This document shows positions 692 through 34,056 of a stretch of 64,000 nucleotides of DNA, one piece after another. A model generated the notes under the pieces. It was not told where the DNA came from. It searched no databases and was given only the letters and a program-made list of their open reading frames with translations. Position numbers and translations under genes: made by a program. This stretch comes from an uncultured Candidatus Saccharibacteria bacterium (GTDB lineage Bacteria; Patescibacteriota; Minisyncoccia; Portnoybacterales; UBA2143). The stretch spans positions 11,332-75,331 of the forward strand of contig CAZQUN010000002.1 of NCBI GenBank assembly GCA_964596615.1, written 5' to 3'. Positions within the stretch are counted from its first letter, which is position 1. Every line of letters begins with the position of its first letter.

Positions 692-885
692 TTTTTATAG
701 TATTCATTAATCCTAGCCATCACTAGCCTGCCCATAAAGTAGCCAGATGCCGGGCAATCCCTCCTAGCCTGGCTAGGCCGAAGGATTAGAGAGAGTTCAC
801 TTTTGTGAATTTTCTCTAACGCTTCTGGGTAGGCTAGTGGTGACTAGGTTGTAGTTTTTTCAGAACTAACATCAAGGAGGCAAAG

Positions 886-17315: not shown

Positions 17316-17909
17316 ATGACCAAATCTAAAATTCTTCTCTATCTCTGCCTTTTGTATATCTTCGGTGTCTTTGCTTATTCCCTGGTTGAGAGTCCTCAAC
17401 CTTTTTTATTTAACCAAACAGACAAAGAAACCGTTTTAAAGGGAATCATTGTTGGTGAACCAGAAAAAAGAATTAACCAACAGAAGTTTGAATTTAAGGC
17501 AGAAAACATTGAGGGGAAAGTCTTGATTACCACAGAACTATACCCAAGTTATTTTTATGGAGACGAATTAGAAGTTTTTGGTAAATTACAGGAACCAGCA
17601 GTTTTTGAAGATTTTGATTATCGTCAGTATTTAAGAAAAGATAAAATTTATTCAGTTATTTATTATCCTCAAATTAATCGGCTGGCAGGAAACCAGGGTA
17701 ATTGGTTTTATCAAAGGATTTTTAACTTCAAAGACAAATTGAGAAATATTATTGAACAAACTTTACTTCCTCCTCAATCGTCTATTTTAAAAGCAGTTTT
17801 TCTGGGAGACAGATTTAGCCTTTCAGATGAATTAAAAGAAAAATTAAATATTACTGGTACTCGGCATATTGTTGCTATTTCCGGGATGCATATACCTATA
17901 ACTCCATAG
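17316..17909 (+). pseudogene. comEC: ComEC N-terminal fragment (DUF4131 region through the start of the competence domain), interrupted by an inserted element
   Basis: Ends ...GTRHIVAISGMHI, which is the conserved HLLAISGLH entry into the ComEC competence domain. The continuation is found at 31248 after the 13.4-kb insertion. Confidence 0.8.
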
Positions 17910-17916
17910 CTACAAT

Positions 17917-18960
17917 TTAAGAAAGAATATTGTATTCATCCTCTTTAGCGTCTTCTAGGATTTTTAAAAATTCGTCAAATTCCTTCTTCTTTTTGTTTAT
18001 TATATCCTCTAACAATTCTACTTTTAAATCTCTTAAACCTTTGGGCATATTTGGATCTAGATCAAAACCAATTAAGAAAATATCAATAATCTTAATTTTG
18101 GGATTGTGTCTTTCTATAATCCCTTTATATCCTAAAACTTGGCCAATATGTTCTGCTTTTATTTTTATGATAGGCCTTTTTAATTCAGCTAAAACAATAT
18201 GGTTTTCGTCTTGCAAGTACATCTTAACTATTAAATCTGGTTTTTTCCCGAGTTCGGGGTCTTTCTTTATGTTTTGAGCAAGATAATCACTTAATGGTTT
18301 ATTGCTTTTTACTAAATCATAGTTATTATCTAGTAACCATAGGTTATTTTCTAACAGTTTATGAATCTCTCTTTCTTTCGTATCTTTTTGTTTCATTAAA
18401 CTTTCTAATAATTTAATTATTGATATTTTCTTTTGAATAAGTTCCGCTATAGAATTAATTTGATGAATTTTTAATTCATTTAAAAGCGAAACGAAGCCAG
18501 TCAATTCATCTCCACCTGCCTCAGATAATTTTTTTAACAAAAAATCAAGATTTTCTGCCTTGATTTCATAAATTCTTAGTCCTAGTTTGTCCAACGCCTC
18601 AAAACTTGCCTCGGTTAAATTGCTTATATTTTTATTTGATAGTATTTTTTGCAGAAAATCGGGATCACTTTTTAAGGTTGCATCTATATTTTTTAAAATT
18701 TCTACTTCAGAGGATGTCATCTTTTTAATAGGCCATTGATGTTCTTTTGTGGTTTCTGACTCAATAACGCTTTTTAACATACTCCAATCTTTAAGATGAA
18801 GATTAAAAAATTGTTGTTTTCCTCCGGGTTTTCCTTGCAATGTTCTGTTCATAATTATGTAATTTCTATCTGCGTGTTCCATATCGCTAACCACGGAAAA
18901 TGACGTAAATCCGCTAGACCATTTCTTTGTTATTTTTTTAATTACTTTAAACTTACTCAT
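17917..18960 (-). CDS. PD-(D/E)xK nuclease, Shedu (SduA)/DUF4263-like
   Basis: C-terminal NLWLLDNNYDLV...KKPDLIVKM...VLAELKRP...IGQVLGY gives RecB-like motifs D, ExK and QxxxY. Confidence 0.4.
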   Translation of the reverse strand: MSKFKVIKKITKKWSSGFTSFSVVSDMEHADRNYIIMNRTLQGKPGGKQQFFNLHLKDWSMLKSVIESETTKEHQWPIKKMTSSEVEILKNIDATLKSDPDFLQKILSNKNISNLTEASFEALDKLGLRIYEIKAENLDFLLKKLSEAGGDELTGFVSLLNELKIHQINSIAELIQKKISIIKLLESLMKQKDTKEREIHKLLENNLWLLDNNYDLVKSNKPLSDYLAQNIKKDPELGKKPDLIVKMYLQDENHIVLAELKRPIIKIKAEHIGQVLGYKGIIERHNPKIKIIDIFLIGFDLDPNMPKGLRDLKVELLEDIINKKKKEFDEFLKILEDAKEDEYNILS

Positions 18961-19159
18961 AAAAAATTTGGTTTATTTCAGATGGCTCGTTTATATGCGA
19001 ATTTCAACAATTGACTTTTCTATATCTCTATCCTACCACAACAATATCTATTTTTAATATTTAACTCACATCCTTAATACACCGGCCTGTAGGGCTATAG
19101 CTACAGCTTTAGAGAAATGATTGCATTTTTATCTTAGTATCCAATACTGAAATGGTTTA

Positions 19160-19597
19160 TTAATCATTTTTTATTTTTGTTTTTGAGTTTATTCCGACTC
19201 CTGGCCCATATTTACCCATTGGTACATCATGTAGTTCATTTGGGAATTTATCAATGAGTTTTTTTATTATTTTCTTTGAATAGTCGTCTTTTGCATCCCA
19301 TTCTGTGGTAAGGTGATGGTAGCTACGATGAGGACCATGTCTCTCTAAATAATTAACAAGCCTTGTCTTTCTTCGCCAAGCTTTTATCTCTCGCCATAAA
19401 AAATAAATTAATAGAAGCCAAAGAAAAAGAAATATGATTACAACATACGATTTCCAGGATTGTGGAAATAAAATAATCCATTTATTGATTGTTGATGGGA
19501 GGATAAAAATTAGAAGTATAACTACTATATGTATTGGTTTATTCTCAACTATTTCTAGAATTTCTTTTATATTTTTAATGTTATTATTTTCATTCAT
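19160..19597 (-). CDS. hypothetical membrane protein (3 TM) with a basic cytoplasmic tail
   Basis: ORF and hydropathy only. Confidence 0.35.
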   Translation of the reverse strand: MNENNNIKNIKEILEIVENKPIHIVVILLIFILPSTINKWIILFPQSWKSYVVIIFLFLWLLLIYFLWREIKAWRRKTRLVNYLERHGPHRSYHHLTTEWDAKDDYSKKIIKKLIDKFPNELHDVPMGKYGPGVGINSKTKIKND

Positions 19598-19770
19598 GAT
19601 TGTATATTTAAATTAGTCACAATAATCGATTTTTTTACATCTCTAAGCTTTATATTACCATGGTGATAGATATTTTCAATATTCTTAATCTACATACCTA
19701 TGACTCTATAGCTACATAACCTGCAGAAAACAATAAAATAGGACAATTAAAATTGATCAGACTTATCAAC

Positions 19771-19799
19771 TTGCTGTGTAAAGAATTGTAAAGTATAAT
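19771..19799 (+). promoter_or_regulatory. sigma70-like promoter upstream of the methyltransferase gene
   Basis: TTGCTG, 17-nt spacer, TATAAT, 7 nt before the ATG region. Confidence 0.45.
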
Positions 19800-19805
19800 G
19801 GAGAC

Positions 19806-20936
19806 ATGAACAACAAAATAAAATATTATACAGCTCAAGAGCTTGCAAAAGAATTAAGGGTGAACATAATGACAATCTATCGTTATGTTAAGGCTGGCAA
19901 GCTTAAGGCCCATAAAATAGGTAAGGAATTTAGAATCTACAAAGAAGAATTTGATAGATTTTTAAACGAGACAAAAATTGATAAAAGAGAAAAAAATCCT
20001 AAGAAAGTTAAAAAATACGGCCTCGATTTAGGTAAACGAGGTATTTATGATATTAGAAATCCATTAAATGATTTGACTGGTCGAGAATGGATCTATTTTT
20101 TAAACTCTATTCGTGTTACCGATTTTTCTACTGATGAGAATGAGTTGGAGCTATGGAAATACTTACAAAATTCTTTGATAGAAACTAGATATTCGACAAA
20201 TGGCAAAGATTCATTCGCTCATGATTTAAGAAAAATACATCCTTCGCCAAAGCCACCACAATTGATGAAAGAATTGATAGAATTTTTTACAAAAAGAAGT
20301 GGTTATATTTTAGATCCATTTATGGGGGTGGGGGGAACTCTACTTGGAGCATCGTTATCTAAGAGAAAAGCTGTTGGGATCGATTTGTGTAAAAATTATA
20401 TTGATGTTTATAAAAAAGCTACAGAAAAATTAAACTTAAAAGAACAAACTACTATAGTAGGCGATGCTAGAAATATCGACAAGTATCAACAAACAAAATC
20501 TAAGCTTTTTGATGCCATTATTACAGACCCACCATATGCTAATTTACTATCGAAGAAACGTACTGGAGGGGACAGAACAAAAAAGATAGGCACATCTACG
20601 CCCTTCACAGATAATCCACTAGATCTGGGGAACTTTGACTATAAAGATTTCCTGCCTGAATTTAGAAAAATAATAGAAAGACTCTTATTAAGCTTAAAAC
20701 CGAAAGGATATTTTATTACATTCATAAAAGATCTTCAGTCAAATGAAACGCACCATAATATGTTACACGCAGACATAGTAAACGAGTTAATAAAAATATC
20801 TGATCTTTCCTACAAAGGATATAAGATTTGGTACGATAAGACAATTAACCTATATCCTTATGGTTATCCTTTCTCTTTTGTGGCTAATCAATTACATCAA
20901 TTTATCCTAGTATTTAGAAAAGAGAGAAAAAAATGA
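19806..20936 (+). CDS. DNA methyltransferase (N6-adenine or N4-cytosine) with an N-terminal excisionase-type HTH
   Basis: N-terminal MNNKIKYYTAQELAKELRVNIMTIYRYVKAGKLKAHKIG (HTH_17/Xis-like). Then motif I DPFMGVGGT and motif IV ITDPPY. Confidence 0.7.
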   Translation: MNNKIKYYTAQELAKELRVNIMTIYRYVKAGKLKAHKIGKEFRIYKEEFDRFLNETKIDKREKNPKKVKKYGLDLGKRGIYDIRNPLNDLTGREWIYFLNSIRVTDFSTDENELELWKYLQNSLIETRYSTNGKDSFAHDLRKIHPSPKPPQLMKELIEFFTKRSGYILDPFMGVGGTLLGASLSKRKAVGIDLCKNYIDVYKKATEKLNLKEQTTIVGDARNIDKYQQTKSKLFDAIITDPPYANLLSKKRTGGDRTKKIGTSTPFTDNPLDLGNFDYKDFLPEFRKIIERLLLSLKPKGYFITFIKDLQSNETHHNMLHADIVNELIKISDLSYKGYKIWYDKTINLYPYGYPFSFVANQLHQFILVFRKERKK

Positions 20937-21973
20937 GATTTATAGGGAATAAACAAAAGCTATTAGAATTTATACTTTCTAAGATCAGAGAGCATAAGAT
21001 TGGTCGTGGGATATTGATTGATATATTTTCAGGAACAACTAATGTCGCGAAATTTTTTAAGAGATTGGACTATCCGGTTATCTCGAATGATCTTTTATGT
21101 TTTTCGTATATATTCCAACGAGCGTATATCCAAAACAATCGACAACCTCTTTTTAGGGGATTAAAGAAGATAGTTAATCAGTCTTCTCTATCTTCTGTTA
21201 TTGAGTGTTTAAATAGCCTAAAAGGTGTTGAGGGTTTTATGTACAACAATTTCACAAAAGGGGGCACTTCGAATAAAGAATATAGTAGGAATTATTTAAG
21301 TGAAGAAAATGCAAGGAAAATTGATGCCATCAGAGATAAAATCGAGCAATGGAAAATAAAAAAAATAGTCACAGAAGAAGAATACTTTATTTTATTAACC
21401 TCTTTGATTGAGGCAGTCCCATATGTATCTAATATTGCTGGAACCTATGGGGCTTTTTTAAAAATAGACGATCCCAGGAAATATAAACCTTTAACTTTAA
21501 AGAATCCTGAAATTATTATAAATAAAAATAAAAATTTTGCTTTCAATGAAGATGGGAATGAACTAATTAAAAAAATAAAAGGCGATGTTCTTTATATAGA
21601 TCCGCCATATAATTCAAGACAATACGCTCCCAATTATCACCTTTTAGAACACATTGCAATATGGGATAAAAAGGTTATGGATAATAAAACAGGATTAAGA
21701 GACTATAATAAACAGAAATCCTTATACTGTGCTAAAAATAAAGTTTACCATGTGACTCTGGATCTAATCGAAAAAGCCATAAACAAAGCCCAGGTAAAAC
21801 ATATCTTATTTAGTTATAATAACGAAGGATTATTAGAGGATTATCAAATTAAGGAAATCTTTGATAAGTTTGGAAAAGTTTATTTTTATAAAAAATCATA
21901 TCCCAGATTTACACATCGAAACAACCACAGAAAAAATACTGAAGAATATCTATTTTATTTATCTGTTCAGTAA
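20933..21973 (+). CDS. Dam-family (D12 class) N6-adenine DNA methyltransferase
   Basis: DIFSGTTNV (motif I), YIDPPYNSRQYAPNYHLLEH (motif IV and downstream Dam box). Start overlaps the upstream MTase stop. Confidence 0.7.
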   Translation: MRFIGNKQKLLEFILSKIREHKIGRGILIDIFSGTTNVAKFFKRLDYPVISNDLLCFSYIFQRAYIQNNRQPLFRGLKKIVNQSSLSSVIECLNSLKGVEGFMYNNFTKGGTSNKEYSRNYLSEENARKIDAIRDKIEQWKIKKIVTEEEYFILLTSLIEAVPYVSNIAGTYGAFLKIDDPRKYKPLTLKNPEIIINKNKNFAFNEDGNELIKKIKGDVLYIDPPYNSRQYAPNYHLLEHIAIWDKKVMDNKTGLRDYNKQKSLYCAKNKVYHVTLDLIEKAINKAQVKHILFSYNNEGLLEDYQIKEIFDKFGKVYFYKKSYPRFTHRNNHRKNTEEYLFYLSVQ

Positions 21974-23335
21974 TTTTTCTATTTTATTTAAAAATTTAGC
22001 TAAAGTCTTAAATATAAATACCTCACCTTTTTCTGTTAAAACAAAAATTACATGTTCATTTGTTATTTGTTTGCCGTATAATACTATCCCTCTTTTAAGC
22101 TTATAGCTGGGATATAAAGGTTTTAAGCATTCGGTCTCAAAAGCTAGAAAAGTCTTTAAATCTTTTAATGCTTTTTTTAGTTTAGCTGTTATCTTGCCTT
22201 CCAAAGAATAAATTTCTTTATTGTAGTCATCTCTTAAAACTAAATCTGGTAAATTAACTATCCCTTTTCTTTTATTCCTCTCAATATATTTATGAACAAC
22301 AATTGGATTCCCCTTCAAATCATATAAATATCCTCTTTCGCAACCAGCGTGATTTTCATATATTGGGATAATATCTGTGGTACGCAAAGAAAGCATATGA
22401 AGCAAGATGGTGGCTAATTTTTCTGATTTATTCTCATATTTCCAATATGATTCAGGGAGATCCATTTTAGGAATTTCCAATTTTTCTAGTTCGATATGCA
22501 AGGCATTCGCAATAAGAATGAATTTATTCGAGTGCGATACATGTCTTTGTTTTAGTCCGTGATGTGTGATTATTATTCTACCCTTCCATCCTAATATTCT
22601 CAGCGTCTTCGAAATTAAAGTTAAAGCACCAATATTTGGATCATGAGATAGACTATCGCTTTTAATTAATCTCCCGCTTATATAGATGGCGTTATTAGTC
22701 TTTTTGATTAATATAGGAACATTACCTCTTGGTGGTTTTCTCATTTTATTTTTCACTTCGATTACTTCTTTAATCGATTTAAATGGGGTGGGTTTAAAAA
22801 GGCTACTGCTTTTTCCAAACATCTCAACGCCTATCGTCAATAATAACTTAGTCCCAAATATATTTGTGTCTGTCGGCTTTCTGCTCTCCTCAACTTGTAA
22901 ATTATATAACATGATTTTTCTTATGGTTGGATAATAAATATCTATAAAAACAAATTTTGATGCTCTTTGAAAAATTCCTGTATTTCTTGACTCAATATCT
23001 CCTGTTTTGGTTTCTTCAACGACTAAAATAGGTTTTTGCGTTGGGCTAGGAGGACCAATCCCTTCATATATTAGAAAATCCACAAAGCTGCTATCGCCGC
23101 TTACGATCTTTAACAGAATATCAGATCTTCCTCTAATTCTTACATTATCTATCCTATACAAATGAGCAAAAATACCCTTATTAAAAATAGGGTTAATTAC
23201 TGCGTTGCCTTTAGCTCGAAGATTTAAATTCTTCTGTTCAGCATAAAGCCCAAGTATTTTTTCTATAATCTCCGGCTTAGGCCGTTCCTCGCATAAAATC
23301 CAAGTTTTTATTTTATTTGTGGTAGACATATTCAA
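21959..23335 (-). CDS. putative Type II restriction endonuclease (PD-(D/E)xK-like core near the C-terminus)
   Basis: Convergent with and overlapping the Dam-like MTase; PDLVLRDD...EIYSLEGK fits PD...ExK; no other recognisable domain. Confidence 0.4.
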   Translation of the reverse strand: MNMSTTNKIKTWILCEERPKPEIIEKILGLYAEQKNLNLRAKGNAVINPIFNKGIFAHLYRIDNVRIRGRSDILLKIVSGDSSFVDFLIYEGIGPPSPTQKPILVVEETKTGDIESRNTGIFQRASKFVFIDIYYPTIRKIMLYNLQVEESRKPTDTNIFGTKLLLTIGVEMFGKSSSLFKPTPFKSIKEVIEVKNKMRKPPRGNVPILIKKTNNAIYISGRLIKSDSLSHDPNIGALTLISKTLRILGWKGRIIITHHGLKQRHVSHSNKFILIANALHIELEKLEIPKMDLPESYWKYENKSEKLATILLHMLSLRTTDIIPIYENHAGCERGYLYDLKGNPIVVHKYIERNKRKGIVNLPDLVLRDDYNKEIYSLEGKITAKLKKALKDLKTFLAFETECLKPLYPSYKLKRGIVLYGKQITNEHVIFVLTEKGEVFIFKTLAKFLNKIEKLLNR

Positions 23336-23413
23336 AATTAAACCTCGCTTTTACTTAACCTTAACAATTTTTTATAACAGCGTCTATATCTTGGCTACTA
23401 TAGACTATCAATA

Positions 23414-23443
23414 ACAAAAGCCCGGCAATGGGCTTTTCTTTCA
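23414..23443. terminator. bidirectional intrinsic terminator
   Basis: AGCCCGGCAATGGGCT hairpin flanked by A-run and T-run. Confidence 0.5.
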
Positions 23444-23501
23444 ACTTTGAAGATATTAGTTACTTAAATAAAAGGGCTTTACTTTTTATTTAATGATAAA
23501 T

Positions 23502-24107
23502 TTATCTATTTTCAGTGGGTCCGAGTTTTTTTATATGATCTCTTGGTCTAACGAACTTACTTCTATTCAAAACAACAATTTCATAATTTCTAGCCATAGG
23601 TTCGCCAAAATGAATTTTTATATATTCTCCTAATCCAAACGGAAAATTTTTATCGTAGTTATTTATGCCGTAGCCGATGGGGAATTTGCTAAAAATTGGG
23701 TGAAAAGCGCTGAACTCGTAGCCAACTGGAAGCCAAGATGATCGCCTCGGGTGATATGGATGAAGATATAAAATATCCCAGTGTTTGCCATTTTCGCAAA
23801 CGGTCTCATAAATATCAATAGGGCCGTTAACTTTGCCGCTTTTTGTAGATCCTAATCGATGGTACATAAGACCAGTACCACACTTGCATCTCAATCTATT
23901 GATATATTTCATCTCGCCAATAGCGCCGTTAACAGGAATAGAATTAGCGGCGATGCGACCAAAGTCCTGTTCACTGTCTATCAAAGAATCACAATCCCTT
24001 CCCTTTATGGCTAATGGATATAAACCGGGGATCTCTTTTTTTAGGTCTTGCTCCTGATCTTCAAGGGACTCATCAATAAATTTTTTCTTAAATAAATTAA
24101 AAAACAT
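23502..24107 (-). CDS. hypothetical protein (201 aa)
   Basis: ORF only; Cys-containing; no recognisable motif. Confidence 0.35.
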   Translation of the reverse strand: MFFNLFKKKFIDESLEDQEQDLKKEIPGLYPLAIKGRDCDSLIDSEQDFGRIAANSIPVNGAIGEMKYINRLRCKCGTGLMYHRLGSTKSGKVNGPIDIYETVCENGKHWDILYLHPYHPRRSSWLPVGYEFSAFHPIFSKFPIGYGINNYDKNFPFGLGEYIKIHFGEPMARNYEIVVLNRSKFVRPRDHIKKLGPTENR

Positions 24108-24110
24108 ATA

Positions 24111-24344
24111 TTAGATCTTCGTCTTTTTTTCTAAACTATTTAATTCTCGATATAGATCCTTTAATTCTATTTCCAGTAAGCCAGAAAGTTCTTTTAAATT
24201 AACGACTTCTCTCCTTATGTCTCTTTTTAAGATGCGGAGAATACCGAAGGGATAAAGTAGTTCTGATATCCTTTTATTATATTCTTCTCTTTGCTTTTCC
24301 AAGAACATAATTTTCCGTTTTACTTTTTTAATTCTATTATTCAT
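24111..24344 (-). CDS. hypothetical coiled-coil protein (77 aa)
   Basis: ORF only. Confidence 0.3.
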   Translation of the reverse strand: MNNRIKKVKRKIMFLEKQREEYNKRISELLYPFGILRILKRDIRREVVNLKELSGLLEIELKDLYRELNSLEKKTKI

Positions 24345-24384
24345 GTTTTAAGCTAACTCGTTGATATTTAGGAGATGGATAGAA

Positions 24385-24528
24385 TTATTTACACCAGTAT
24401 TCACAACCTTGTTCAGTCCTTTGAGCGGCATTGTAGGTTCTGTAATCGGTAATAAAAATCCAGATCGAGAAAACTACCAAAGTCGTGACTCCTAATAGAA
24501 GTAGAATTAATTGTAGCCAGTCCTTCAT
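24385..24528 (-). CDS. small hydrophobic peptide (47 aa) ending GCEYWCK
   Basis: Hand translation MKDWLQLILLLLGVTTLVVFSIWIFITDYRTYNAAQRTEQGCEYWCK; one TM helix; not in the ORF track (shorter than 60 aa). Confidence 0.3.
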   Translation of the reverse strand: MKDWLQLILLLLGVTTLVVFSIWIFITDYRTYNAAQRTEQGCEYWCK

Positions 24529-24828
24529 GGTTTTTTACAATGGGAATACACAAAGCCCCGCGCTAGCTAGGCCTTGCGGCCCTATAGCCCTTTCGGGATA
24601 TAGCCCATCACTGAGTTGCTGAACGCGGGGTCCAGTATCAGTGATGGGTCTTTTACGCCATGCCCTAAAAGGGTTTAGGTCATTTAGTTGTTATTTATAA
24701 CTTACCACAAGTTTTATTGGAATGGAAGCGATAAAAGGGGATATCTAATATTTTAAACAAATATTGAAAGAAGGCTTAGAACGGGATAAAATAAAGGAAA
24801 TTACAATGATAATTATTCTAACATTACG

Positions 24829-25695
24829 ATGATCACAGGAGTAAAATTTGATTCAGGAGTAAAATTTGATTGGGAGAATCTTTCCTCAGAAAATCTTAAA
24901 ATCGCCAGGAAGGTTATTAAGGTTATTTCAGATTTTTTACAATTTCAGCCAATGGGCAGATTCTCACCTTATACTGTAATACCATTACAAAGATTCGAAG
25001 AAAAACGGATATGTATAGACGATATAAACATGGTATTGGATAAAATAGATGATATAAAGGTTAGTAACGACGAATTGCGCTATGAAATAAAATATCATCC
25101 ACAACGAATTCTAAGGTGGTTTTATGGAAATTTTACCGATGATGGTTTATTTAACGTCCCACCAGAAAAGATACTCAAAAATTACATTTTTCTACAAATA
25201 AGTTCGATAAGCGATCTTCGTCGAGTACAGGGCTTGATCGATGAAAGACTTAAAATAGACTCCAGGCAAAAAGAAGAAATACTATCTCCTAATTATCTAA
25301 AATCAATACACCTTATTACTAAGTCTCTTGAGCCGACCGATGTGATATTCCTAGTTCTTGATGAGCGTTTTGAATATCCTATAAGAAGCGTAGTATGGCA
25401 CAAAGGCAATCCTACATATGTCAAAAAACTATATGATATTGCCTATTTTGTGGATGTTCCAAATAAAAAAGTTAATTATGGTAAAAATATAGCTAATAGC
25501 ATTAACAACGGGTTATTTAGAAAAAGGCCAGTGGCAGAATATATGGAAACAAATAAATTCAAAAAGCCAACGCTTGTACAAAAATCAGAAAATAAAACTT
25601 TGGTTTTAAAAAATGAAATTCTTGTAGAAACAGGTCTTATTCATAATAAAGTTCCGAAACAATATCAATATCTTTATATAGATAAAACAAGATAG
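24829..25695 (+). CDS. hypothetical protein (288 aa)
   Basis: ORF; followed by a terminator. Confidence 0.4.
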   Translation: MITGVKFDSGVKFDWENLSSENLKIARKVIKVISDFLQFQPMGRFSPYTVIPLQRFEEKRICIDDINMVLDKIDDIKVSNDELRYEIKYHPQRILRWFYGNFTDDGLFNVPPEKILKNYIFLQISSISDLRRVQGLIDERLKIDSRQKEEILSPNYLKSIHLITKSLEPTDVIFLVLDERFEYPIRSVVWHKGNPTYVKKLYDIAYFVDVPNKKVNYGKNIANSINNGLFRKRPVAEYMETNKFKKPTLVQKSENKTLVLKNEILVETGLIHNKVPKQYQYLYIDKTR

Positions 25696-25734
25696 TGTTC
25701 GTATATCATTAAACTTGGGAGTTGGTCGTATGCT

Positions 25735-25762
25735 AAAAACCGCTTTAATAAGCGGTTTTTTT
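25735..25762 (+). terminator. intrinsic terminator
   Basis: AAAAACCGCTTTAATAAGCGGTTTTTTT. Confidence 0.65.
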
Positions 25763-25830
25763 CATTTGTTCTTCGACTGGTCGGATAGATATAATAATAG
25801 CAAATAAATTACTGATCTAATAAAAATTAT

Positions 25831-26091
25831 ATGACCCAAAAACAAATGGATGATACAAAAAATTATTTTCACAGCCACGACATTGGACTGGTTGCTTATT
25901 TGCTTTGTCGAAATTTTGAATTAGTCAGCCTGGATAAAGTCATGAAAAATAAGGTGCTTTTCATTCTGAAAAGGACCAATAGGATAGACATAGAAATAAA
26001 GAAATATTGGGATTTTAATTCATTAGTTGATGCCCAAACTTATTTTAATCAACTAAAGAGGTTAAAAAATCAAATCTTTAGTTCAGAGTGA
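25831..26091 (+). CDS. hypothetical protein (86 aa)
   Basis: ORF only. Confidence 0.3.
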   Translation: MTQKQMDDTKNYFHSHDIGLVAYLLCRNFELVSLDKVMKNKVLFILKRTNRIDIEIKKYWDFNSLVDAQTYFNQLKRLKNQIFSSE

Positions 26092-26343
26092 CTTATGTCG
26101 AATAACAAAATACAAAACGATTAATAGATTTATGACTAGCCAACAAAAGTTTAAAGTTAAAATCAAATTCAATAAAAATATCTCCAAAAAAGAAAGAAAG
26201 AAAAGGCTGCGAAATGTTTTCGATACATTGTTCTCTAAAGGAGATAGTAAAGAAACTAAACTGAACCTTGGTACTGGTTTGGGGTTCCGGCAGGACATGC
26301 AAACTCCCTGGAAACCAGAGCTAGTACTGGGGCTTACGCAGGG

Positions 26344-27141
26344 ATGCCAAAAAGAAGAATGATCGACGCTAATAGATTATATGGGGATACAGAACTGATT
26401 GAAAATATCGGTAAGGATGGGTTGTTGCTCTATATTCTACTTTGGTCAATGTCAGAGGATTTCGGTGCTTTCGAGAATAACCCAAAGCAAATCCATTATG
26501 AGTCAAAAGGGGTAAGATTGAGTGTGAAGAAAATACAAGAATATTTAGAAACACTAGAAAGATTAGGAAAAATTATTCTTTATAGAGTCGATGACAAAGA
26601 ATACTACTGGCTTAAGAATTTTTTTAAGTATCAGAAATTATCTAATGCTTCGCTTCCCAATCTACCTCTACCTGAATGGATTAAGTATAAAGAGTGTCAA
26701 TATCCAGGCGGTAGAAAGTATGCTCAATATAATGTAGATACCGAGAAACTACCTGTAGCCTACATGAAGCCTGTACGAGGCATAGTCGAAAAAGAGAAGC
26801 GAAAGAGAAGCGAAGATAAAAGAAAGGAAAATAAAAGAAGCGAAGAGGGAAAAAAGTTGTCATTCGACAATAATAACGAGCAGTCGTCTTTAAATAGATC
26901 TAATAATATCGCTGAACCGCTTACTTGTAAATCAAAGGAATTCAAAGTTAGAGAGATAGCCGAAGAATTAGGAGAAGTCGATCCGATCAAATCTACCAAA
27001 GTTTGGTTAGGGAAATATGACTACTCTTTAATTAAAAGAACCTGGGAAATTTATGGAAAGCGAACTGAAACTAAAACAATTAAAAACTGCCCCGCCTATT
27101 TCAATAGTTTACTAGAAAAATTACATAGTGAGCGAAAGTAA
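26344..27141 (+). CDS. hypothetical protein, possible replication/regulatory function (Lys-rich linker)
   Basis: ORF lying between the cargo genes and the terS-like gene; no confident motif. Confidence 0.35.
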   Translation: MPKRRMIDANRLYGDTELIENIGKDGLLLYILLWSMSEDFGAFENNPKQIHYESKGVRLSVKKIQEYLETLERLGKIILYRVDDKEYYWLKNFFKYQKLSNASLPNLPLPEWIKYKECQYPGGRKYAQYNVDTEKLPVAYMKPVRGIVEKEKRKRSEDKRKENKRSEEGKKLSFDNNNEQSSLNRSNNIAEPLTCKSKEFKVREIAEELGEVDPIKSTKVWLGKYDYSLIKRTWEIYGKRTETKTIKNCPAYFNSLLEKLHSERK

Positions 27142-27156
27142 ATCCTATTTATTTTT

Positions 27157-27666
27157 ATGAGTAAAGGCGAAAAAATTAAACTATCACCCCAGCAAGAATT
27201 GTTTTGCCAGCTTTATATTAAAGATTATTTTGGCAATGGAGTTAAATCATACATCATTGCCTATAAGAAGGAATTTCCAATAGATGTTGAGTATCGATAT
27301 TTAAATCCAGACGAAAAAAAACGATATGATTCCTATGCTGTCCGGGCCGCTCAACTATTAAGAAACCTTAAGATGGTTAAGCGCATAGGAGAATTACTCG
27401 ATGAGCATATTGAGGATGCAGTAGTAGATAGAGAAATGATAGCGGTTATTCTCCAGAAGGAAGATTTGACCGCGAAGATGAGGGCGATCAGCGAATATAA
27501 CAAAGTCAAACAACGAATCATTTCTAAATCTGAGATTGAGAAAAAAGTAATAAAGGTCGACAAAACAAGTAAAGAGTTTAAGGAGTATAAACAATGGCGA
27601 TTAGAGAAGAGAAAATTAAAAGAAGAGAGCCAGGAGAGGTTGGCCCGAAAGAAGAAAAAGAAATAG
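27157..27666 (+). CDS. phage terminase small subunit-like protein
   Basis: LSPQQELFCQLYIKDYFGNGVKSYIIAY resembles the conserved N-terminal TerS (Terminase_2) motif L-x-QE-FC-x-Y. No terL, portal or capsid genes are present. Confidence 0.5.
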   Translation: MSKGEKIKLSPQQELFCQLYIKDYFGNGVKSYIIAYKKEFPIDVEYRYLNPDEKKRYDSYAVRAAQLLRNLKMVKRIGELLDEHIEDAVVDREMIAVILQKEDLTAKMRAISEYNKVKQRIISKSEIEKKVIKVDKTSKEFKEYKQWRLEKRKLKEESQERLARKKKKK

Positions 27667-28009
27667 TAAAGGAGTACTTTAATCGGTTTCGTCTATCTAA
27701 GGAGCAGCAAAGGGAAGTCCTTGTGAGAATGATTGCCGAGTTGCGATTGGATATAACGATTTCTTTAGAGGACCAGTTTTGCTTAAAAAGGAACAAGAGA
27801 AATAAAAAAACCGTTTAGGCTATTTAGTTTCTCATATTTGATTCTTGCTTGCTTATTCCGTCTGCCTATTTCTTAAGAAGCTCTCTAATTCCTTTTCAGA
27901 AATACGACATGACTTTAATAGATGGTTATATTTATCATAAAAAAAGAAAGAATAAAATCAATTAAATATACCAATATGATACCAACAAAAACCCATAAAA
28001 TAAACTTTT

Positions 28010-28195
28010 TCATTTTCTTTTATTTAAAAACTTTTCTAATTCCTTTTTCTCGATTCTAAAATTCCGCTCAGTTAATTTAATCGCTTTTAATTTACCCGAA
28101 CGAATATAGCGCCAGACGGTTTCGTTGCACACATCTAGTAATCCAGCGATCTCTTTCGGGGTATAGTATCCTTTTTTGAGTTTTGTTTTGGCCAT
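28010..28195 (-). CDS. excisionase/Xis-family HTH DNA-binding protein
   Basis: YYTPKEIAGLLDVCNETVWRYIRSGKLKAIKL is the HTH_17 pattern; divergent from the recombinase gene. Confidence 0.7.
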   Translation of the reverse strand: MAKTKLKKGYYTPKEIAGLLDVCNETVWRYIRSGKLKAIKLTERNFRIEKKELEKFLNKRK

Positions 28196-28333
28196 GTTTT
28201 CATTATAGGAGTCGAGTAAGAGAAAGTCAACTTTTGTCTACTCTATCCATAGTCAACAACACTTGACAGGGGATAACTGGTAAGTTAAAATTAAGACAAG
28301 TATAGTCAACAAGAGTCAACACAATAATCTTTT
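28196..28333. promoter_or_regulatory. xis-int divergent intergenic region with five AGTCAAC-type repeats
   Basis: AAGTCAAC, TAGTCAACAA (twice), AGTCAACAC and an inverted TTGACAG. Confidence 0.4.
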
Positions 28334-29911
28334 ATGACAAGCATGTCAAAAATTAAAGCAGTCGTATATGCTAGGGTTAGTTCTGATGAACAGAAAAAGA
28401 AGGAATTTAGTATTCCCAAAATTCAGATTCCTGAATGTATCAATTATATCAAAGAAGAGGGTTGGCTGTTTGCTGGATCCTATGTGGACGAAGGCTTTGA
28501 TTGTAATGCTTTTGAAAAAAGAGCCGAACTTCAAAGAATGCTTAACGGAGAAACGGATAATTATGATGTGGTTGTCGTTTGGAGCTATGACAGATTAGTC
28601 GGTGATGATGAGAATACCCGGGGCCAAATCTACCATATTTTAGACAGAAACAAAAAACAGATAACTTCGGTCAGACAAAGAGCAAGGATAGTCCCAATTG
28701 ACCAGTATGACCCTAAGAGCTTAGATGTCGCTCAAAGGAGACAAATTACTGATATAGGGGTCAGTTTTGATAGAAAGATTAGGAGGGAGAGGTTTATGGA
28801 ATCAAGAGCCAAGACAGTGGCTAATGGCAGGCATATCTCAGAGCCGCCGTATGGTTATAAACTGATTAGGAAGGTTCACCCAGAGGATAAAAGGAGAACT
28901 ATTGGTTATCGATTAATCAATGAGGATGAATCATTAATTTTAGAAAGGATATTCAAAGAGAGGGCTACTGGCAAGAGTTGTAGGAGGATTGCTTTTGGCC
29001 TAAACGATGATGGAATCAGAACTAGAAAGGGTAAAAATTGGACCAACGCCAGGATAACCTATCTTTTAAAAAATTCTTATCCTTGCGGTCTAATTACTTG
29101 GAATAGGACTACCCAGAGGAAATATGGCGACGAACAGGTAAGAACCTACATCCCAGAAGAAAAATGGCAGTATTTCCCGGTTAATACGGCGGTAGAGAAG
29201 TATTATAAGCCGATTATTAGTAAAGAGTTGTTTGATAAAGTTCAGGAGATTAGACAAAGAAATAGAACAGTGTTAAGAGGAAGCGCTTCGTATAGTAGTA
29301 ATTTTTTGGCCGGTCTTCTGAAATGTCCTGTCTGCGGTCGGCCAATGGTAGAAGCTAGTTTTCGTAAACTCAAGAAAAGCATTCTAAGTTATTATATTTG
29401 TTCTTCTCGTCATAATGACGGGGTTTGTAAGAATAAGAAAAGGATAAGAGCGCCGGAATTGAAAGAAGCAGTGCTTAAAGAGGTAATAAAATACCTGAAT
29501 AATCCAGGCGAGTTTAGAGAATACCAAAAGCAGCAGAAAAAAGATGTGCTTAAGAGAGCGGAGAGAGAGGTACTTATCTATGAGAAAAGATTAGCGAAGA
29601 TGAGATCAAGGATTCATTCGCTGAATTTAAAGTTTATAGATGGAAAAATCAAGGATAGTTATTACAAGCAATTACTGGCCAGTTTAGAAGAAGATGAAGA
29701 AGGATTAAAGAAAATTGTTTCTAGAGAAAAAGAAAAGGTAGAGGATTTTAAGAAAAAAAAGGGGACTATAACGAAGTTAAAAGTATTAAGCAGGGATTTT
29801 CGAAGAAGATTTATGGAGCTGGATAATGTTAAAAGAAAACATATTTTCCATACTTTAATTAGGGAGATAAAGGTTCAGGATGATGAGGTAAAAATATTTT
29901 TTAAGGTTTGA
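28334..29911 (+). CDS. large serine recombinase (resolvase/invertase-type catalytic domain plus recombinase and zinc-ribbon domains)
   Basis: N-terminal AVVYARVSSDEQ catalytic Ser motif; 525 aa; C-terminal CPVCGRPM...C zinc ribbon and coiled-coil. Confidence 0.85.
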   Translation: MTSMSKIKAVVYARVSSDEQKKKEFSIPKIQIPECINYIKEEGWLFAGSYVDEGFDCNAFEKRAELQRMLNGETDNYDVVVVWSYDRLVGDDENTRGQIYHILDRNKKQITSVRQRARIVPIDQYDPKSLDVAQRRQITDIGVSFDRKIRRERFMESRAKTVANGRHISEPPYGYKLIRKVHPEDKRRTIGYRLINEDESLILERIFKERATGKSCRRIAFGLNDDGIRTRKGKNWTNARITYLLKNSYPCGLITWNRTTQRKYGDEQVRTYIPEEKWQYFPVNTAVEKYYKPIISKELFDKVQEIRQRNRTVLRGSASYSSNFLAGLLKCPVCGRPMVEASFRKLKKSILSYYICSSRHNDGVCKNKKRIRAPELKEAVLKEVIKYLNNPGEFREYQKQQKKDVLKRAEREVLIYEKRLAKMRSRIHSLNLKFIDGKIKDSYYKQLLASLEEDEEGLKKIVSREKEKVEDFKKKKGTITKLKVLSRDFRRRFMELDNVKRKHIFHTLIREIKVQDDEVKIFFKV

Positions 29912-30361
29912 TTAGTTTTGTCCCGGTGTTGTAAGGAGAAAGTCATATCCAGTATGGATAACTATCGCCGCGATAAGTCCTAGAACAGGCCTTTTTCTTT
30001 TTATAAAATAGCAGATAATCATAGCGGTAATAATCTGGAGTATTGTAGGGGATATACGGACGCTTAGACTATGAACATCTCCTCTGGCAAGGTGCCGAGT
30101 AAAAGATTCTATTCCAGACCAACCCAGTCCAAAGGAAATGCTATAAGGGTTTTCTATTTTCCAACTTTTGATAGATAGGAACTTGCCTAGTTCTTCAGAA
30201 AGTCCGTTAAATAAAGATTCTGTCAGGTGGGCCGATAAAAGAGGCAAGCTACCTAAAGCGTTAAGGCCTGTTATCCTGATAATAAATTCAAAGACTAGGA
30301 ATAGTATTCCGAAGCCGATTATGCCTGCGAGAAAAGCGATCAGAGTATTAATTAGACGCAT
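29912..30361 (-). CDS. CPBP-family (CAAX protease / Abi) intramembrane metalloprotease
   Basis: Multi-TM; conserved C-terminal ...AAIVIHTGYDFL motif region of the CPBP/Abi family. Confidence 0.6.
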   Translation of the reverse strand: MRLINTLIAFLAGIIGFGILFLVFEFIIRITGLNALGSLPLLSAHLTESLFNGLSEELGKFLSIKSWKIENPYSISFGLGWSGIESFTRHLARGDVHSLSVRISPTILQIITAMIICYFIKRKRPVLGLIAAIVIHTGYDFLLTTPGQN

Positions 30362-30409
30362 TGTTATTTCAGGTTATAATTTACTGAGATGACAAAGTTC
30401 AGATATTTT

Positions 30410-31162
30410 TTAAGGTTTAGCCGAAAAAGATATTGTGTCCTGTCTTTGTTCCAATTTCTTTTCTAAAACCTTTGATATTCCATATTTATACAAATCCTGT
30501 CCAAGCTTTGTTATTGAAAATCGATTCCCATTCCTAAAAGCTATTCCGCTAGCAGAACACAAAGCTTCCATTTCCCAATAATCAAAATCTTTATTTGTTT
30601 CTTTCAATAGTTTGCTAAGCTCATTTATTTTACCGCCACTATTTAAGTAAAACTTAAATTCTGCTCTTGATAAAATAGCTAGATAATTAAATGTTGACTC
30701 TTGAAGGCTTTTCAAACAACTGACAAGCGAGGTAAAACGCTCCCAGTCAATTTTTTTTGATATATAGGCACTGAATAGGTAGGCTAAAATCCTAGATTTT
30801 TTTACTGAGTCTAAGTCTTCGATTATAACTAAAATTTGCTCGGTAATTTTATTTCTGAACTTTTTGTTCTTCTTAAAATTATGTCTAAATTCTTTTAAGG
30901 CTTCTTTGTCTACTTTGTTTGACTTAAACTCACTAAGAAATATCAAAAATTTTTTAATAAAAAATCTTTCTTTCACGGCAACGCCAGTTTTAATAATAGC
31001 AACTAGTGTTTTTACGACCGGAGCCTCTTTTAATAAATCAACATCGAGAAGATTGTCGAGTCCAATTTCGGCATAATCTTTGCTAACATCTAAGCTAGGA
31101 TTAATAATCTCTTTTGAAATATTATTCATTAAAATGTTGTTCATTCTTTTTTTGAGAATCAT
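30410..31162 (-). CDS. hypothetical protein (250 aa), possibly defence-related partner of CPBP
   Basis: ORF; Lys-rich; no confident motif. Confidence 0.35.
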   Translation of the reverse strand: MILKKRMNNILMNNISKEIINPSLDVSKDYAEIGLDNLLDVDLLKEAPVVKTLVAIIKTGVAVKERFFIKKFLIFLSEFKSNKVDKEALKEFRHNFKKNKKFRNKITEQILVIIEDLDSVKKSRILAYLFSAYISKKIDWERFTSLVSCLKSLQESTFNYLAILSRAEFKFYLNSGGKINELSKLLKETNKDFDYWEMEALCSASGIAFRNGNRFSITKLGQDLYKYGISKVLEKKLEQRQDTISFSAKP

Positions 31163-31247
31163 ATGATTAATTGTGTTTAATTGTTATTAATGATAGTCGA
31201 ATCTTGGAAGAGTAGCAAGTGTTGATTGTTGCCATGGAGTAAGCGGT

Positions 31248-31976
31248 ATGCATATGATTATTATGACCCAAGTTCTTTTATTCTTGGCCTTGGCAATTGG
31301 CCTTTGGCGAAACCAGGCCTTTTATTTTGTCCTAATTATCTTAATTCTTTATATTACCATGATTGGCGCTCCGGCTTCGGCAGTCAGAGCCGGAATTATG
31401 GCCGGATTACTTTTATTAGCTCAAAAAGTTGGTCGCTTACGGAGTGCCAACAGAGCAGTCGTTTTTGCTGCGACAATTATGCTCCTAATTAATCCGCTTT
31501 TATTAAAATCTGATGTTGGTTTTCAATTATCTTTTGTGGCAGTCCTGGGCATTATTTATTTAAAACCCATTTTTGATCAAAAAATATCCAAGTGGCCCAA
31601 CCCATATTTTCTAAAAGATATTTTAACAATGACTTTGGCTGCCCAATTATCAACTCTGCCTATTTTAATTTTTCACTTTGGCCGCCTTTCTTTAATTTCT
31701 CCTTTAGCTAACTTATTAATCGTCCCTTTATTGCCTTTAATAATGATATCAGGAATAATTTTAGTTTTTTCCGGTTTAATTTGGCTGCCTTTGGCTAAAA
31801 TTATTGCTTGGCCAGCCTGGCTTTTATTGAGTTATGTTATTAAAATTATTGATTATCTTTCATTGTTTCCAATACCAGCAATTGAATTTGAAAAAGTTTC
31901 TTTAATAATCCTATCTCTTTATTACCCAATCCTATTATTTTTTATTTGGAGAAATATAAAGGAGCAGGTCTCTTAG
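31248..31976 (+). pseudogene. comEC: ComEC competence-domain fragment (continuation of 17316..17909)
   Basis: MHMIIMTQVLLFLALAIGL...GAPASAVRAGIMAGLLLLA...GFQLSFVAVLGI matches Competence-domain (PF03772) TM signatures. The ATG is part of the ATGCATAT junction repeat. Confidence 0.8.
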
Positions 31977-32012
31977 ATTAAGCCCTGCTCCTTTCTCGGG
32001 TGGTTCCGAGTT

Positions 32013-32669
32013 TTATCTTCTGAATCCGCGACCTGGCTGCCGCCAGTACGACGGGCATCTCCGCCATCCGTAATCCGGATCCCAGCACCATCGTTCCGGT
32101 GGTAGTTTTGGTTTTTTGTATCGATATGGCTTTGGTTGGATAACAACAAAAGATTCTGTTGGTTTCGGCTCAACAATAATAATGGGGTCTGGTTCAGTAA
32201 TAACAACGGATTCTTGGATCCCCGGCCTAAAAAAATACAGAGTGGCTATACCCTCTTCGAATCTTAACGTAAACACTCCGGTGTACTCGGCGTTTTCGTT
32301 TAGAAAATCGAAGAAATTGGTGTTTGTCGCGGCGGCATAAAATTGAATTTTATGCTGTTGGCTTAATGCTGCCAGAACCTCGAGTTCCTGGAACTTCCCC
32401 CTTATTCCTTTAAGGGTGTGTTTTCTCCCCTGGAAGAAGATTTCGTAAGTAACAAACTGGTTACTTTCTGTTTTTCTTCCCAGGGCTGTAGCGGGAAATG
32501 AATTTCGTATCCCTTGATGATAAGAATCAACCTCATATGTCGAGTCGGCGTATGAGATTACTCCTTTTCCTGTAAGATAAGGAGGAACTCCGGCGATGGC
32601 GGGGAGGCTGTTGTGAAAAAACACCAAGAAAACAATAAAAACACCTAAAATTATTATTCTTCTTTTCAT
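32013..32669 (-). CDS. secreted hypothetical protein with an Arg/Pro/Trp-rich C-terminus
   Basis: RBS GGAGAT; signal peptide MKRRIIILGVFIVFLVFF...AIAG. Confidence 0.45.
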   Translation of the reverse strand: MKRRIIILGVFIVFLVFFHNSLPAIAGVPPYLTGKGVISYADSTYEVDSYHQGIRNSFPATALGRKTESNQFVTYEIFFQGRKHTLKGIRGKFQELEVLAALSQQHKIQFYAAATNTNFFDFLNENAEYTGVFTLRFEEGIATLYFFRPGIQESVVITEPDPIIIVEPKPTESFVVIQPKPYRYKKPKLPPERWCWDPDYGWRRCPSYWRQPGRGFRR

Positions 32670-32834
32670 GTCAATCTCCTTTTCTGTACTGGGTTTGGGT
32701 TTATGGTTAAAGTTAAAGACCAATATGGTTTAATCTAATATTGCTATAGAAAATAATTTTTGTCAAGATTTGGGATAAAATAAAAAAGCAGGGTTGTTGT
32801 TAACCCTGCCTATTGGGAGATATTTTCTCCCATT

Positions 32835-33068
32835 TTAACCTCCTTTCTGTTCCTGTTTTACGACGATCAAAGGATATTCAGGCTCTGTAATACTTTTGAA
32901 CAGCTCTATCAGAATTTCGCTAAGATCGAATTTCTCCATCTCTTTTGCCTCCTCTTCTCTCATCTTAGCGATGAAATCCGAGATTTCTCCAGCCGTGGCT
33001 GGAGACACCAGAGATAAGAAAATGACGGAGAAAAGAACGATAACTGTGATAACTGCCATGCCTTTCAT
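32835..33068 (-). CDS. small secreted protein
   Basis: Strong RBS GAGGAGG; signal peptide MKGMAVITVIVLFSVIFLSLVSPATAG. Confidence 0.4.
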   Translation of the reverse strand: MKGMAVITVIVLFSVIFLSLVSPATAGEISDFIAKMREEEAKEMEKFDLSEILIELFKSITEPEYPLIVVKQEQKGG

Positions 33069-33192
33069 GCAAGGTACCTCCTCTTCAAATTTAACCCAAA
33101 TCCGTAATGCCATATTTATATCACATAACCTATGACTTGTCAATGTTTTTGCTTTAGTTTAATAAATTCTTTTTAGGTGATAAAATGTATAT

Positions 33193-34056
33193 ATGTTTGG
33201 TAAAAAAATCACTTTTTCAATTTTAATAGTTCTTTTTGGCGGAACTGTTATTACCTGGTCCGTTATTTTCTCTCTAACTCCAGATAATGTTTTAGAAGTT
33301 GTTTTCTTTGATATTGGCCAGGGTGATAGTATTTTCATTGAAACCCCGAGCAAAAGACAGGTTTTAATTGATGGCGGACCGGATAAAAGTGTTTTGGAAA
33401 AATTGAATGAACAAATGCCTTTTTATGACAGGAAAATTGATTTAATCATCTTAACTCATCCTGATGCTGACCATATTACCGGATTAATTGAAGTTCTGGG
33501 GTATTATCAAATTGGCCATATTTTAACCAGCGGTTTTCAAAAAGACACTGTTGTTTACAATAAATGGAAAAAATTAATTGAAGAAAAGGGCATTCCTTTA
33601 TCTTTGGCCCAAAGCGGCCAAAAAATATTTTTAGAAGAAAATATTGTTTTAGAAATTCTCTGGCCGGACCAAAACTCAATTAAAACAATTTCTTCAGCAA
33701 ATAATGCATCGGTTGTTGGTCGATTGGTCTATGGTCAATCAGAAATTCTTTTAACCGGAGACATAGAGAAGAAAATTGAAAGCCAACTTGTTAGACACTC
33801 GGTGTCTAACAGTTTAGAGTCAGATATTTTGAAAGTACCTCATCATGGGAGCAAAACTTCCGCTAGTTACAATTTTCTCCAAGCAGTTAGTCCGGAAATA
33901 GCGGTTATCTCGGTTGGCGAGGGTAATCGATATAAGCATCCTAGTCAGGATGTTTTAGATCGTTTGGAAAATACAACAATTTACCGGACAGACAAAAATG
34001 GAGACATCGAAGTTTTAACCGACGGATTTTTGATTGAAATAGGAACGGAAAAGTGA
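33193..34056 (+). CDS. comEC: ComEC-type metallo-beta-lactamase domain protein (separate ORF)
   Basis: N-terminal TM, then FFDIGQGDSIFIETP...IDGGPD...ILTHPDADHITGL...VPHHGSKTSAS...ISVGEGNRYKHP, the ComEC C-terminal MBL signature. Confidence 0.8.
   Translation: MFGKKITFSILIVLFGGTVITWSVIFSLTPDNVLEVVFFDIGQGDSIFIETPSKRQVLIDGGPDKSVLEKLNEQMPFYDRKIDLIILTHPDADHITGLIEVLGYYQIGHILTSGFQKDTVVYNKWKKLIEEKGIPLSLAQSGQKIFLEENIVLEILWPDQNSIKTISSANNASVVGRLVYGQSEILLTGDIEKKIESQLVRHSVSNSLESDILKVPHHGSKTSASYNFLQAVSPEIAVISVGEGNRYKHPSQDVLDRLENTTIYRTDKNGDIEVLTDGFLIEIGTEK

Follow-up and report, generated by a model that had tools for sequence, protein, structure and literature searches.

We analysed a 64,000-nucleotide stretch of contig CAZQUN010000002.1 (assembly GCA_964596615.1) from an uncultured Candidatus Saccharibacteria bacterium, hereafter the window, in which the competence gene comEC is interrupted by a 13.4-kb mobile element that encodes its own serine integrase. 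The element sits precisely, and in frame, within the comEC gene of this candidate-phyla-radiation bacterium. The features that define the insertion are the following, in window coordinates:

17316..17893, + strand: comEC 5′ part, residues 1-192, comprising the DUF4131/OB fold and the first ~30 residues of the Competence channel domain
17886..17893, + strand: core of the left attachment site (attL), ATGCATAT, inferred crossover at CA 17889-17890
17894..31255, no strand: integrated mobile element, 13,362 bp with one core copy counted
31248..31255, + strand: core of the right attachment site (attR), ATGCATAT, inferred crossover at CA 31251-31252
31248..31976, + strand: comEC 3′ part, starting MHMIIMTQ, residues 191-432 of the rebuilt protein, with the remainder of the Competence channel domain

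A preliminary description of this DNA had read comEC as split at 17909, in frame after an ISGMH motif, and as resuming at 31248. Both open reading frames (ORFs) were found. The 5′ ORF covers 17316..17909, and ComEC homology proper stops at 17893 (...AISGMH); the tail behind it consists of five element-encoded codons (IPITP) and the stop at 17909. The octamer ATGCATAT, said to be present at both junctions, was located at 17886-17893 and at 31248-31255, which are the two breakpoints of ComEC homology. It is not a rare octamer, with 4 copies observed in the window against 2.25 expected, and its significance lies in its placement exactly at both homology breakpoints. When 17894..31255 was removed in silico, joining 17316..17893 to 31256..31976, a 1299-nt frame encoding 432 amino acids (aa) was obtained. 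The fused translation, which had been predicted to be continuous, aligned to the Pfam family PF03772 (Competence) in one piece (residues 162-424, profile positions 2-265 of 270, E 1.6e-60), with a DUF4131 match ahead of this domain, and we found no other lesion in either half of the gene. The GC content of the element is 32.6%, compared with 38.4% in the rest of the window, and is below that of every equally long stretch outside the element.

Uninterrupted comEC genes were present in related genomes. Intact homologues of the rebuilt protein number more than 100; they are 430-500 aa long and 53-85% identical to it, and those with a name are labelled Candidatus Portnoybacteria or Patescibacteria. 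The closest is encoded at locus L001, where comEC is uninterrupted and the protein is 85% identical. The L001 DNA aligns to window positions 17316-17893 and then runs straight on to 31244-31852, and its site, TCCGGGATGCATATGATTATTATGACC, is a 27-mer identical to the in silico excision product. Downstream synteny with the window is conserved in L001, with genes for a beta-lactamase-fold protein, an adenylate-kinase-like protein and an M50 peptidase. Because relatives carry the uninterrupted gene, the window holds an insertion and not an ancestral split. Given that the sequence comes from a metagenome-assembled genome (MAG), an assembly chimera, or an ancestrally two-gene comEC with unrelated DNA between its halves, had to be weighed. 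The attL junction recurs in independent Logan assemblies of three runs (SRR24302412, SRR24302413 and SRR24302424) and the attR junction in one, the 8-bp repeat stands exactly at both breakpoints, a relative has the empty site, and 11 further distinct elements share the architecture, as described below. The junctions are no assembly accident, and this alternative is effectively refuted.

The junctions read ...TTTCCGGGATGCATATACCTATAACTCC at attL and ...GAGTAAGCGGTATGCATATGATTATTATG at attR. From them we predicted the empty chromosomal site, attB, as TTGCTATTTCCGGGATGCATATGATTATTATGACCCAAG and the site on the circular element, attP, as GCCATGGAGTAAGCGGTATGCATATACCTATAACTCCATAGC, the latter rebuilt from the two inner flanks (...gccatggagtaagcggtATGCATATacctataactccatagc...). 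When every possible centre was scored, attP showed dyad symmetry at 16/22 complementary positions with a single sharp optimum at CA, while random window positions gave 5.8 +/- 2.1, with P(>=14) = 5.5e-4 (0.055%). The imperfect inverted arms noticed at first are thus real and longer than first read. Sharp attP symmetry of this kind around CA is a signature of serine-integrase sites, and the probable crossover is therefore fixed at this dinucleotide. In a related element, L012, GCA is all that the two junctions have in common, as would fit a CA (or GC) crossover; here too the two comEC parts fuse in frame. In addition, the element-derived arm of attR (31233-31250) encodes (V)SG in frame ahead of the core, mimicking the ISG of ComEC with other codons (AGC GGT vs TCC GGG). 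The sequence AGYGGT is conserved across elements and is probably a core-proximal integrase recognition motif common to attP and attB.

The integrase and its relatives in comEC

The preliminary description had assigned the element a large serine recombinase and an Xis-like protein of its own, and both assignments agree with the profile matches. The two genes are divergently oriented:

28010..28195, - strand: excisionase-family helix-turn-helix (HTH) protein, 61 aa; TIGR01764 at 38.8 bits (cut-off 28.8), HTH_17 at 7e-14
28334..29911, + strand: full-length large serine recombinase (integrase) of 525 aa; catalytic-serine motif YARVSSDEQ

The integrase has a resolvase-type catalytic domain (Resolvase PF00239, 1.8e-13), followed in the C-terminal extension by Recombinase (PF07508, 3.9e-22) and a zinc ribbon (Zn_ribbon_recom PF13408, 8.9e-14), and it matches phrog_95 at 4e-76. 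YARVSSDEQ aligns to YTRVSTTNQ in the catalytic domain of the TP901-1 integrase. R14, S16 and other columns are invariant across the clade of this integrase, as are the zinc-ribbon cysteines C331, C334, C356 and C365. Together with the symmetric attP, this is the makeup of a large serine recombinase, and the identity between attP and attB is confined to a few crossover bases (8 bp for the element in the window, GCA alone for L012). Excision by serine integrases needs a directionality factor. The 61-aa HTH protein matches the "excisionase family" model above its cut-off, and copies 52-72% identical to it adjoin the integrase in L009, L013, L012, L017 and L027; it is therefore put forward, from its sequence and position, as a candidate recombination directionality factor or regulator. 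In several related elements (L012 7461-8027, L017 9463-9996 and L026 9097-9654) the large recombinase gene is directly preceded by one for another serine recombinase, small (177-188 aa) and of the resolvase type; this second gene is absent from the element in the window.

In a collection of 5.8 billion protein clusters, the integrase has about 27 close relatives at 43-72% identity, behind which identity drops sharply from 43% to 27%. Their genomic context was drawn from contigs of metagenomes, from a collection of species-representative genomes and from look-ups of exact proteins. We found that every locus of this clade with enough flanking sequence has a comEC fragment beside the integrase, broken at residue ~192 of the rebuilt protein (ISGMH). 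The 11 further distinct comEC elements are L003, L005, L006/L014-16, L012, L013, L017, L018, L023, L024/L008/L025, L026 and L027, of which L026 has a comEC fragment that is a weak 27% match at the contig end. The integrase points toward the 3′ part of comEC in L003, L005, L006/L014-16, L012, L013, L017, L018, L026 and L027, and converges on a 197-217-aa 5′ fragment in L023 and L024/L008/L025. Besides the element in the window, two are complete, namely L012 with 12.3 kb, in a Saccharibacteria MAG, and L027 with ~9.2 kb. A search with the N-terminal fragment returned more cut-off ComEC proteins that end in ISGMH and a short tail (IPITP, IPITL, KPITL, NPVP or MPLCL), and the similarity of these tails points to one kind of element arm. 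Identity of the host ComEC proteins to that of the window is 38-76%, and the hosts are Parcubacteria-like and Saccharibacteria genomes; with a Saccharibacteria MAG among them, the elements occur in at least two deep lineages of Patescibacteria. The whole integrase clade thus targets the same comEC position in distant Patescibacteria, at all informative loci, and related integrases hit the orthologous site within the coding sequence in other species. The target, RHIVAISGMHMII, is one of the three most conserved blocks of ComEC, with ~95% conservation against a mean of 69% in 114 homologues.

Between elements, conservation is limited to the integrase and the small HTH gene, and the cargo is otherwise unrelated. 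L017 carries phage-like cargo (Terminase_3, DnaB and a collagen-like protein). In L014, L018 and L023 we found type I or type II restriction-modification genes, a tyrosine recombinase and Mrr-methylase fusions, and in L027 a Panacea-domain protein and a primase-like protein.

A serine-recombinase element in comEC was at first taken to be more novel than it is, since streptococci provide a precedent. Phi1207.3/Tn1207.3 and Phi10394.4 are serine-recombinase prophages that integrate at a GA dinucleotide in comEC of S. pyogenes (PMC4260502). Like these, and like Tn1207.1 in the pneumococcal celB and phi-SsuHCJ31_comEC, the present element is site-specific, lies inside the comEC coding sequence and has a very short duplicated core. 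The streptococcal elements differ in that they are true prophages of 52-58 kb in another host phylum, whereas the element here has restriction-modification, replication and TerS-like (small-terminase-like) cargo with no virion genes detected. Their integrases are unrelated at the level of the clade, and identity of the window integrase to the integrases in GenBank phage records is ~25-29%, with ~29% as the maximum. The position is also not the same: the S. suis phage (MN270268, named for its site) cuts ComEC near residue 560, and S. suis ComEC is continuous across the site used here.

The pattern is exactly that of elements in comYC, comFA, comM and comK, whose orthologous integrases use orthologous, non-identical competence-gene sites across species and genera, read as protection from transformation-mediated deletion (Croucher et al. 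2016, PMC4774983). That survey covered neither Patescibacteria nor this comEC site. The integrase itself resembles those of TP901-1, A118, PhiC31 and Bxb1 in its three domains, catalytic serine motif, symmetric attP, minimal crossover identity and small partner protein, but belongs to a distinct clade set apart by the sharp identity gap. In the literature we found no description of comEC-targeting serine recombinases in Patescibacteria. What is new here is the integrase clade, its target site, the host group and the non-phage type of element; the phenomenon itself is already known.

Cargo, LOOT RNA and the type of element

The remaining features of the element are as follows:

17917..18960, - strand: nuclease-like protein matching phrog_6203; matches to the Shedu SduA C-terminal domain and to a BbrUII-type restriction endonuclease are weak and below curated cut-offs
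19160..19597, - strand: hypothetical protein, 145 aa, with hydrophobic stretches read from the sequence
19806..20936, + strand: DNA methyltransferase 1, HTH_17 (PF12728, 5.5e-13) fused N-terminally to N6_N4_Mtase (PF01555, 9e-24); MTase_II 2.3e-86
20933..21973, + strand: DNA methyltransferase 2 (D12-class N6-adenine), PF02086 6e-38; MTase_II 2.2e-93
21959..23335, - strand: type II restriction endonuclease, PADLOC PDLC03445 REase_II 1.8e-60
23502..24344, - strand: two ORFs (201 aa and 77 aa) with no assigned function, downstream of the LOOT RNA on the same strand
24569..24681, - strand: LOOT RNA (Rfam RF03000), 69 bits (gathering score 46.4); intergenic, where the leftward and rightward gene blocks diverge
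24829..26362, + strand: rightward block of orf288, a DUF5659 protein (25831-26091) and orf76
26344..27141, + strand: replication initiation protein, phrog_1408 1.4e-13 and four more replication-initiator PHROGs
27157..27666, + strand: small-terminase-like (TerS-like) protein, phrog_51 1.4e-8, N-terminal 37 residues only
29912..31162, - strand: two ORFs with no assigned function, a hydrophobic 149-aa protein and a 250-aa protein, filling the space to attR

The methyltransferase genes adjoin the restriction endonuclease gene, as in a type II restriction-modification system. The nuclease-like protein at 17917..18960 was considered as a Shedu protein (SduA) and rejected, with PF14082 at 24 bits against a cut-off of 27 and the PADLOC SduA model at 18 bits. 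The DUF5659 protein and orf76 recur in L027 and the hydrophobic 149-aa protein in L003 and L005. Five ORFs of the element have no match to any family. The TerS-like protein is homologous (E 8e-7) to a Pfam Terminase_2 protein of the related element L023. Pfam, PHROGs and NCBIfam revealed in the element no gene for capsid, portal, large terminase, tail or lysis functions. A complete prophage was rejected on this lack of detected virion and lysis genes, and 13.4 kb is too small for a tailed phage.

We therefore compared the element with satellites of the phage-inducible chromosomal island (PICI) type. It is like them in its size range (~10-15 kb), integrase, replication initiator and small-terminase-like gene and in having no virion or lysis genes detected. 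PICIs typically use tyrosine integrases, whereas this element uses a serine integrase; genes for a repressor or for capsid remodelling were not identified, nor was a helper phage, and the TerS match is weak. Membership of the PICIs is thus not established. We read the element as an integrative mobile genetic element, satellite-like or defence-island-like and not a complete phage, whose large serine recombinase is specialised for the comEC DNA that codes for RHIVAISGMHMII, and we put the probability of this reading at roughly 80%.

Several points weigh against it. The satellite part of the reading draws on the weak TerS match and on virion genes that went undetected, and the latter could reflect divergence of phage proteins in this bacterial group. 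The dyad symmetry of attB is weak (7/22). An empty-site allele of this strain was absent from the 5.8 billion protein clusters, where the best intact match is 85% identical, and no excised or free form was found in viral contigs by scans with the integrase, the clade alignment and the exact attP 22-mer, so that current mobility of the element is not demonstrated. That DNA uptake through ComEC is abolished while the element is integrated is most likely, as judged from the position of the break, and a benefit of targeting comEC cannot be separated here from the neutral use of a conserved, dispensable landing site.

The LOOT RNA is not confined to the window. Three further distinct copies, at 75-87 bits, were found in related elements (L003 7164-7278, L023 6875-6994 and L024 6436-6557, the last being the same as L008 292-413; all on the - strand), which, with that of the window, makes 4/12 distinct comEC-targeting elements. 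In every case it occupies the intergenic region where the two gene blocks diverge, ~3-3.7 kb upstream of the integrase gene and on the other strand, and compensatory changes occur in 14/36 predicted pairs among the four copies. LOOT may therefore be a regulatory RNA of this class of comEC-targeting elements. The main text of its discovery paper gives no description of the motif. With its place in the control region of the comEC-targeting elements, an orphan RNA motif gains a concrete genomic context. The family-wide specificity for comEC and the association with LOOT are modest additions to knowledge.

Proposed integration and excision, and the probable fate of ComEC

The anatomy of the locus suggests how the insertion arose. 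Dimers of the large serine recombinase would bind two sites, the strongly symmetric attP of the circular element and attB in comEC. Both would then be cut at the central CA dinucleotide and the strands exchanged by subunit rotation, as is established for serine integrases, giving attL (17886-17893) and attR (31248-31255). In the integrated state the cell would be left with a 192-residue N-terminal fragment and a C-terminal fragment that has no first part of the channel. Acting with the excisionase-family HTH protein encoded next to it, the integrase could release the element exactly and so rebuild comEC. The replication initiator and the TerS-like protein suggest that the circle may replicate and be packaged by a helper phage. 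The restriction-modification system and the nuclease-like gene are probably cargo that also stabilises the element, with the restriction-modification system predicted both to defend the cell and to penalise loss of the element.

The channel domain is the universally required part of ComEC (PMC12455585), and DNA uptake should be lost because the break lies inside this membrane domain. This expectation would fail if the two halves were expressed separately and assembled into a functional protein, leaving competence intact. The C-terminal fragment in the window begins with an ATG in the core with GGAG 8 nt upstream, in several relatives the integrase gene reads directly into the C-terminal fragment, and the ComEC of this lineage already tolerates a separately encoded beta-lactamase-fold domain. 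The start at the junction is not conserved, however, with TCGCAC in L014 and ACGCAT in L012 at that position, and the break falls within the most conserved block of the channel domain and not at a domain boundary. A ribosome-binding site and start codon supplied by the element for the C-terminal fragment were likewise rejected: neither the GGAG nor the ATG of the window is conserved in relatives, which argues against selection for expression of this fragment. We consider a split but functional ComEC very unlikely.

The preliminary description saw in the locus a possible excision-dependent competence switch, in which regulated, precise excision restores comEC and the element is episomal or re-integrates. 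In Bacillus, skin in sigK and SPbeta in spsM are large-serine-recombinase elements that split a gene, and precise excision restores it. The same holds for Listeria phi10403S in comK (PMC7397523), which gives such a switch a precedent in a competence gene. Likeness to these elements holds as far as a large serine recombinase splits a restorable gene. It does not extend to the rest: for comK, sigK and spsM regulated excision tied to a host programme has been demonstrated, whereas the element here is not fixed in its lineage and its cargo is a mosaic. Several features would suit a switch. Excision would restore an intact frame, also in L012, the integrase and the candidate directionality factor are intact, the replication initiator could maintain an excised circle, and neither comEC half in the window bears another lesion.

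Against this, neither the empty-site allele among the protein clusters nor the attP among the viral contigs was found, and what assembled in three samples was the integrated form. Most related genomes have a plain intact comEC, and the element is therefore not a fixed regulatory feature; nor is it stable and conserved at the locus across the lineage, as the closest relatives are intact and the cargo differs completely. The cargo joined to the same integrase module is unrelated from element to element, and one of these elements is prophage-like; this is what an integration module of mobile elements would show, and not a host-domesticated switch. In addition, the 3′ part of comEC appears damaged in L018 (11629-12268, a ~28-codon deletion and a frameshift) and in L027 (10655-11387, a +1 frameshift in a T run). 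Both contigs come from one JGI sample (3300033145), so that assembly errors are possible, and comEC may be decaying in these two relatives. The restriction-modification system on the element would penalise its loss. Finally, comEC is dispensable in a cultured Saccharibacterium: in Southlakia epibionticum it was not a fitness gene in transposon sequencing (Tn-seq), and a clean deletion was viable and non-transformable (PMC10633639). This weakens the idea of a lineage dependent on DNA uptake, as comEC is needed in that bacterium only for transformation and not for growth. Nothing was found in support of regulated excision, and a competence switch of this kind is quite improbable.

The undetected virion and lysis genes, the failure to find an excised form among protein clusters or viral contigs, and the possible decay of comEC beside related elements would also fit an immobilised remnant, that is, a decayed prophage or island unable to excise, with comEC permanently inactivated and due to decay. 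This does not sit well with an integrase that is full length with invariant catalytic residues, two perfect att cores, well-preserved attP arms and comEC halves that are still intact. Elements of 9-13 kb recur in other genomes, which suggests a functional class of small elements and not debris. We regard a remnant as unlikely.

The reading as an integrative, comEC-specific mobile element thus stands, and comEC as a target is best understood as a strategy of the mobile element and not as a host-evolved switch. The target is invariant, widely present and dispensable, and disabling transformation could shield the element from deletion by recombination. A bolder proposal is that a Patescibacteria-wide, satellite-like family toggles comEC through its dedicated serine integrase, persisting as an episome maintained by the replication initiator. 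Its members would have an int-xis module, a replication module and variable defence cargo, and often LOOT in the control region as a regulatory RNA. If true, these bacteria would have a reversible competence switch in which integration stops uptake and regulated excision restores it. We hold this to be improbable, and on present evidence the locus does not establish a new regulatory principle.

Homing of mobile elements on competence genes now extends to the candidate phyla radiation, a group with a nearly universal comEC and with mobile elements that are poorly described. This has a consequence for metabolic inference, as a comEC scored as "missing" or "fragmentary" may reflect an element insertion and not a true absence. 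Moreover, this integrase clade has inferable attP and attB in a conserved gene that cultured Saccharibacteria can do without, and it could be developed into a means of site-specific integration for bacteria with very few genetic tools.

Genes around comEC

Two features of the window outside the element bear on competence:

~694..1, - strand: dprA, PF02481 6e-43, cut by the window start
33193..34056, + strand: metallo-beta-lactamase gene, PF00753 9e-14, outside the element

The preliminary description had pointed to dprA in the same window, and the PF02481 match bears this out; with dprA present, this genome appears to have the rest of the competence pathway intact on the recombination side. 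ComEC in this lineage has no fused C-terminal beta-lactamase-like nuclease domain, and a natural two-gene ComEC exists independently of the element. A separate Lactamase_B gene lies just downstream of comEC and is syntenic in relatives (L001 7702-8544, L013 3170-4033 and L018 12306-13148). The separate metallo-beta-lactamase is probably the nuclease partner of ComEC.

Two genes next to comEC are absent from L001. A ParB-like gene (ParB_N and HTH_ParB; 16044-17216, + strand) directly precedes comEC, and an ORF of 236 aa that matches no family (32013-32723, - strand) lies between comEC and the beta-lactamase-fold gene. They are two further small strain-specific insertions on either side of comEC. 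Further upstream, the large subunit of ribonucleotide reductase has 729 aa in the window (13360-15549, + strand) and 1155 aa in L001 (2037-5504), where it contains an intein-splicing domain that is absent from the protein of the window.

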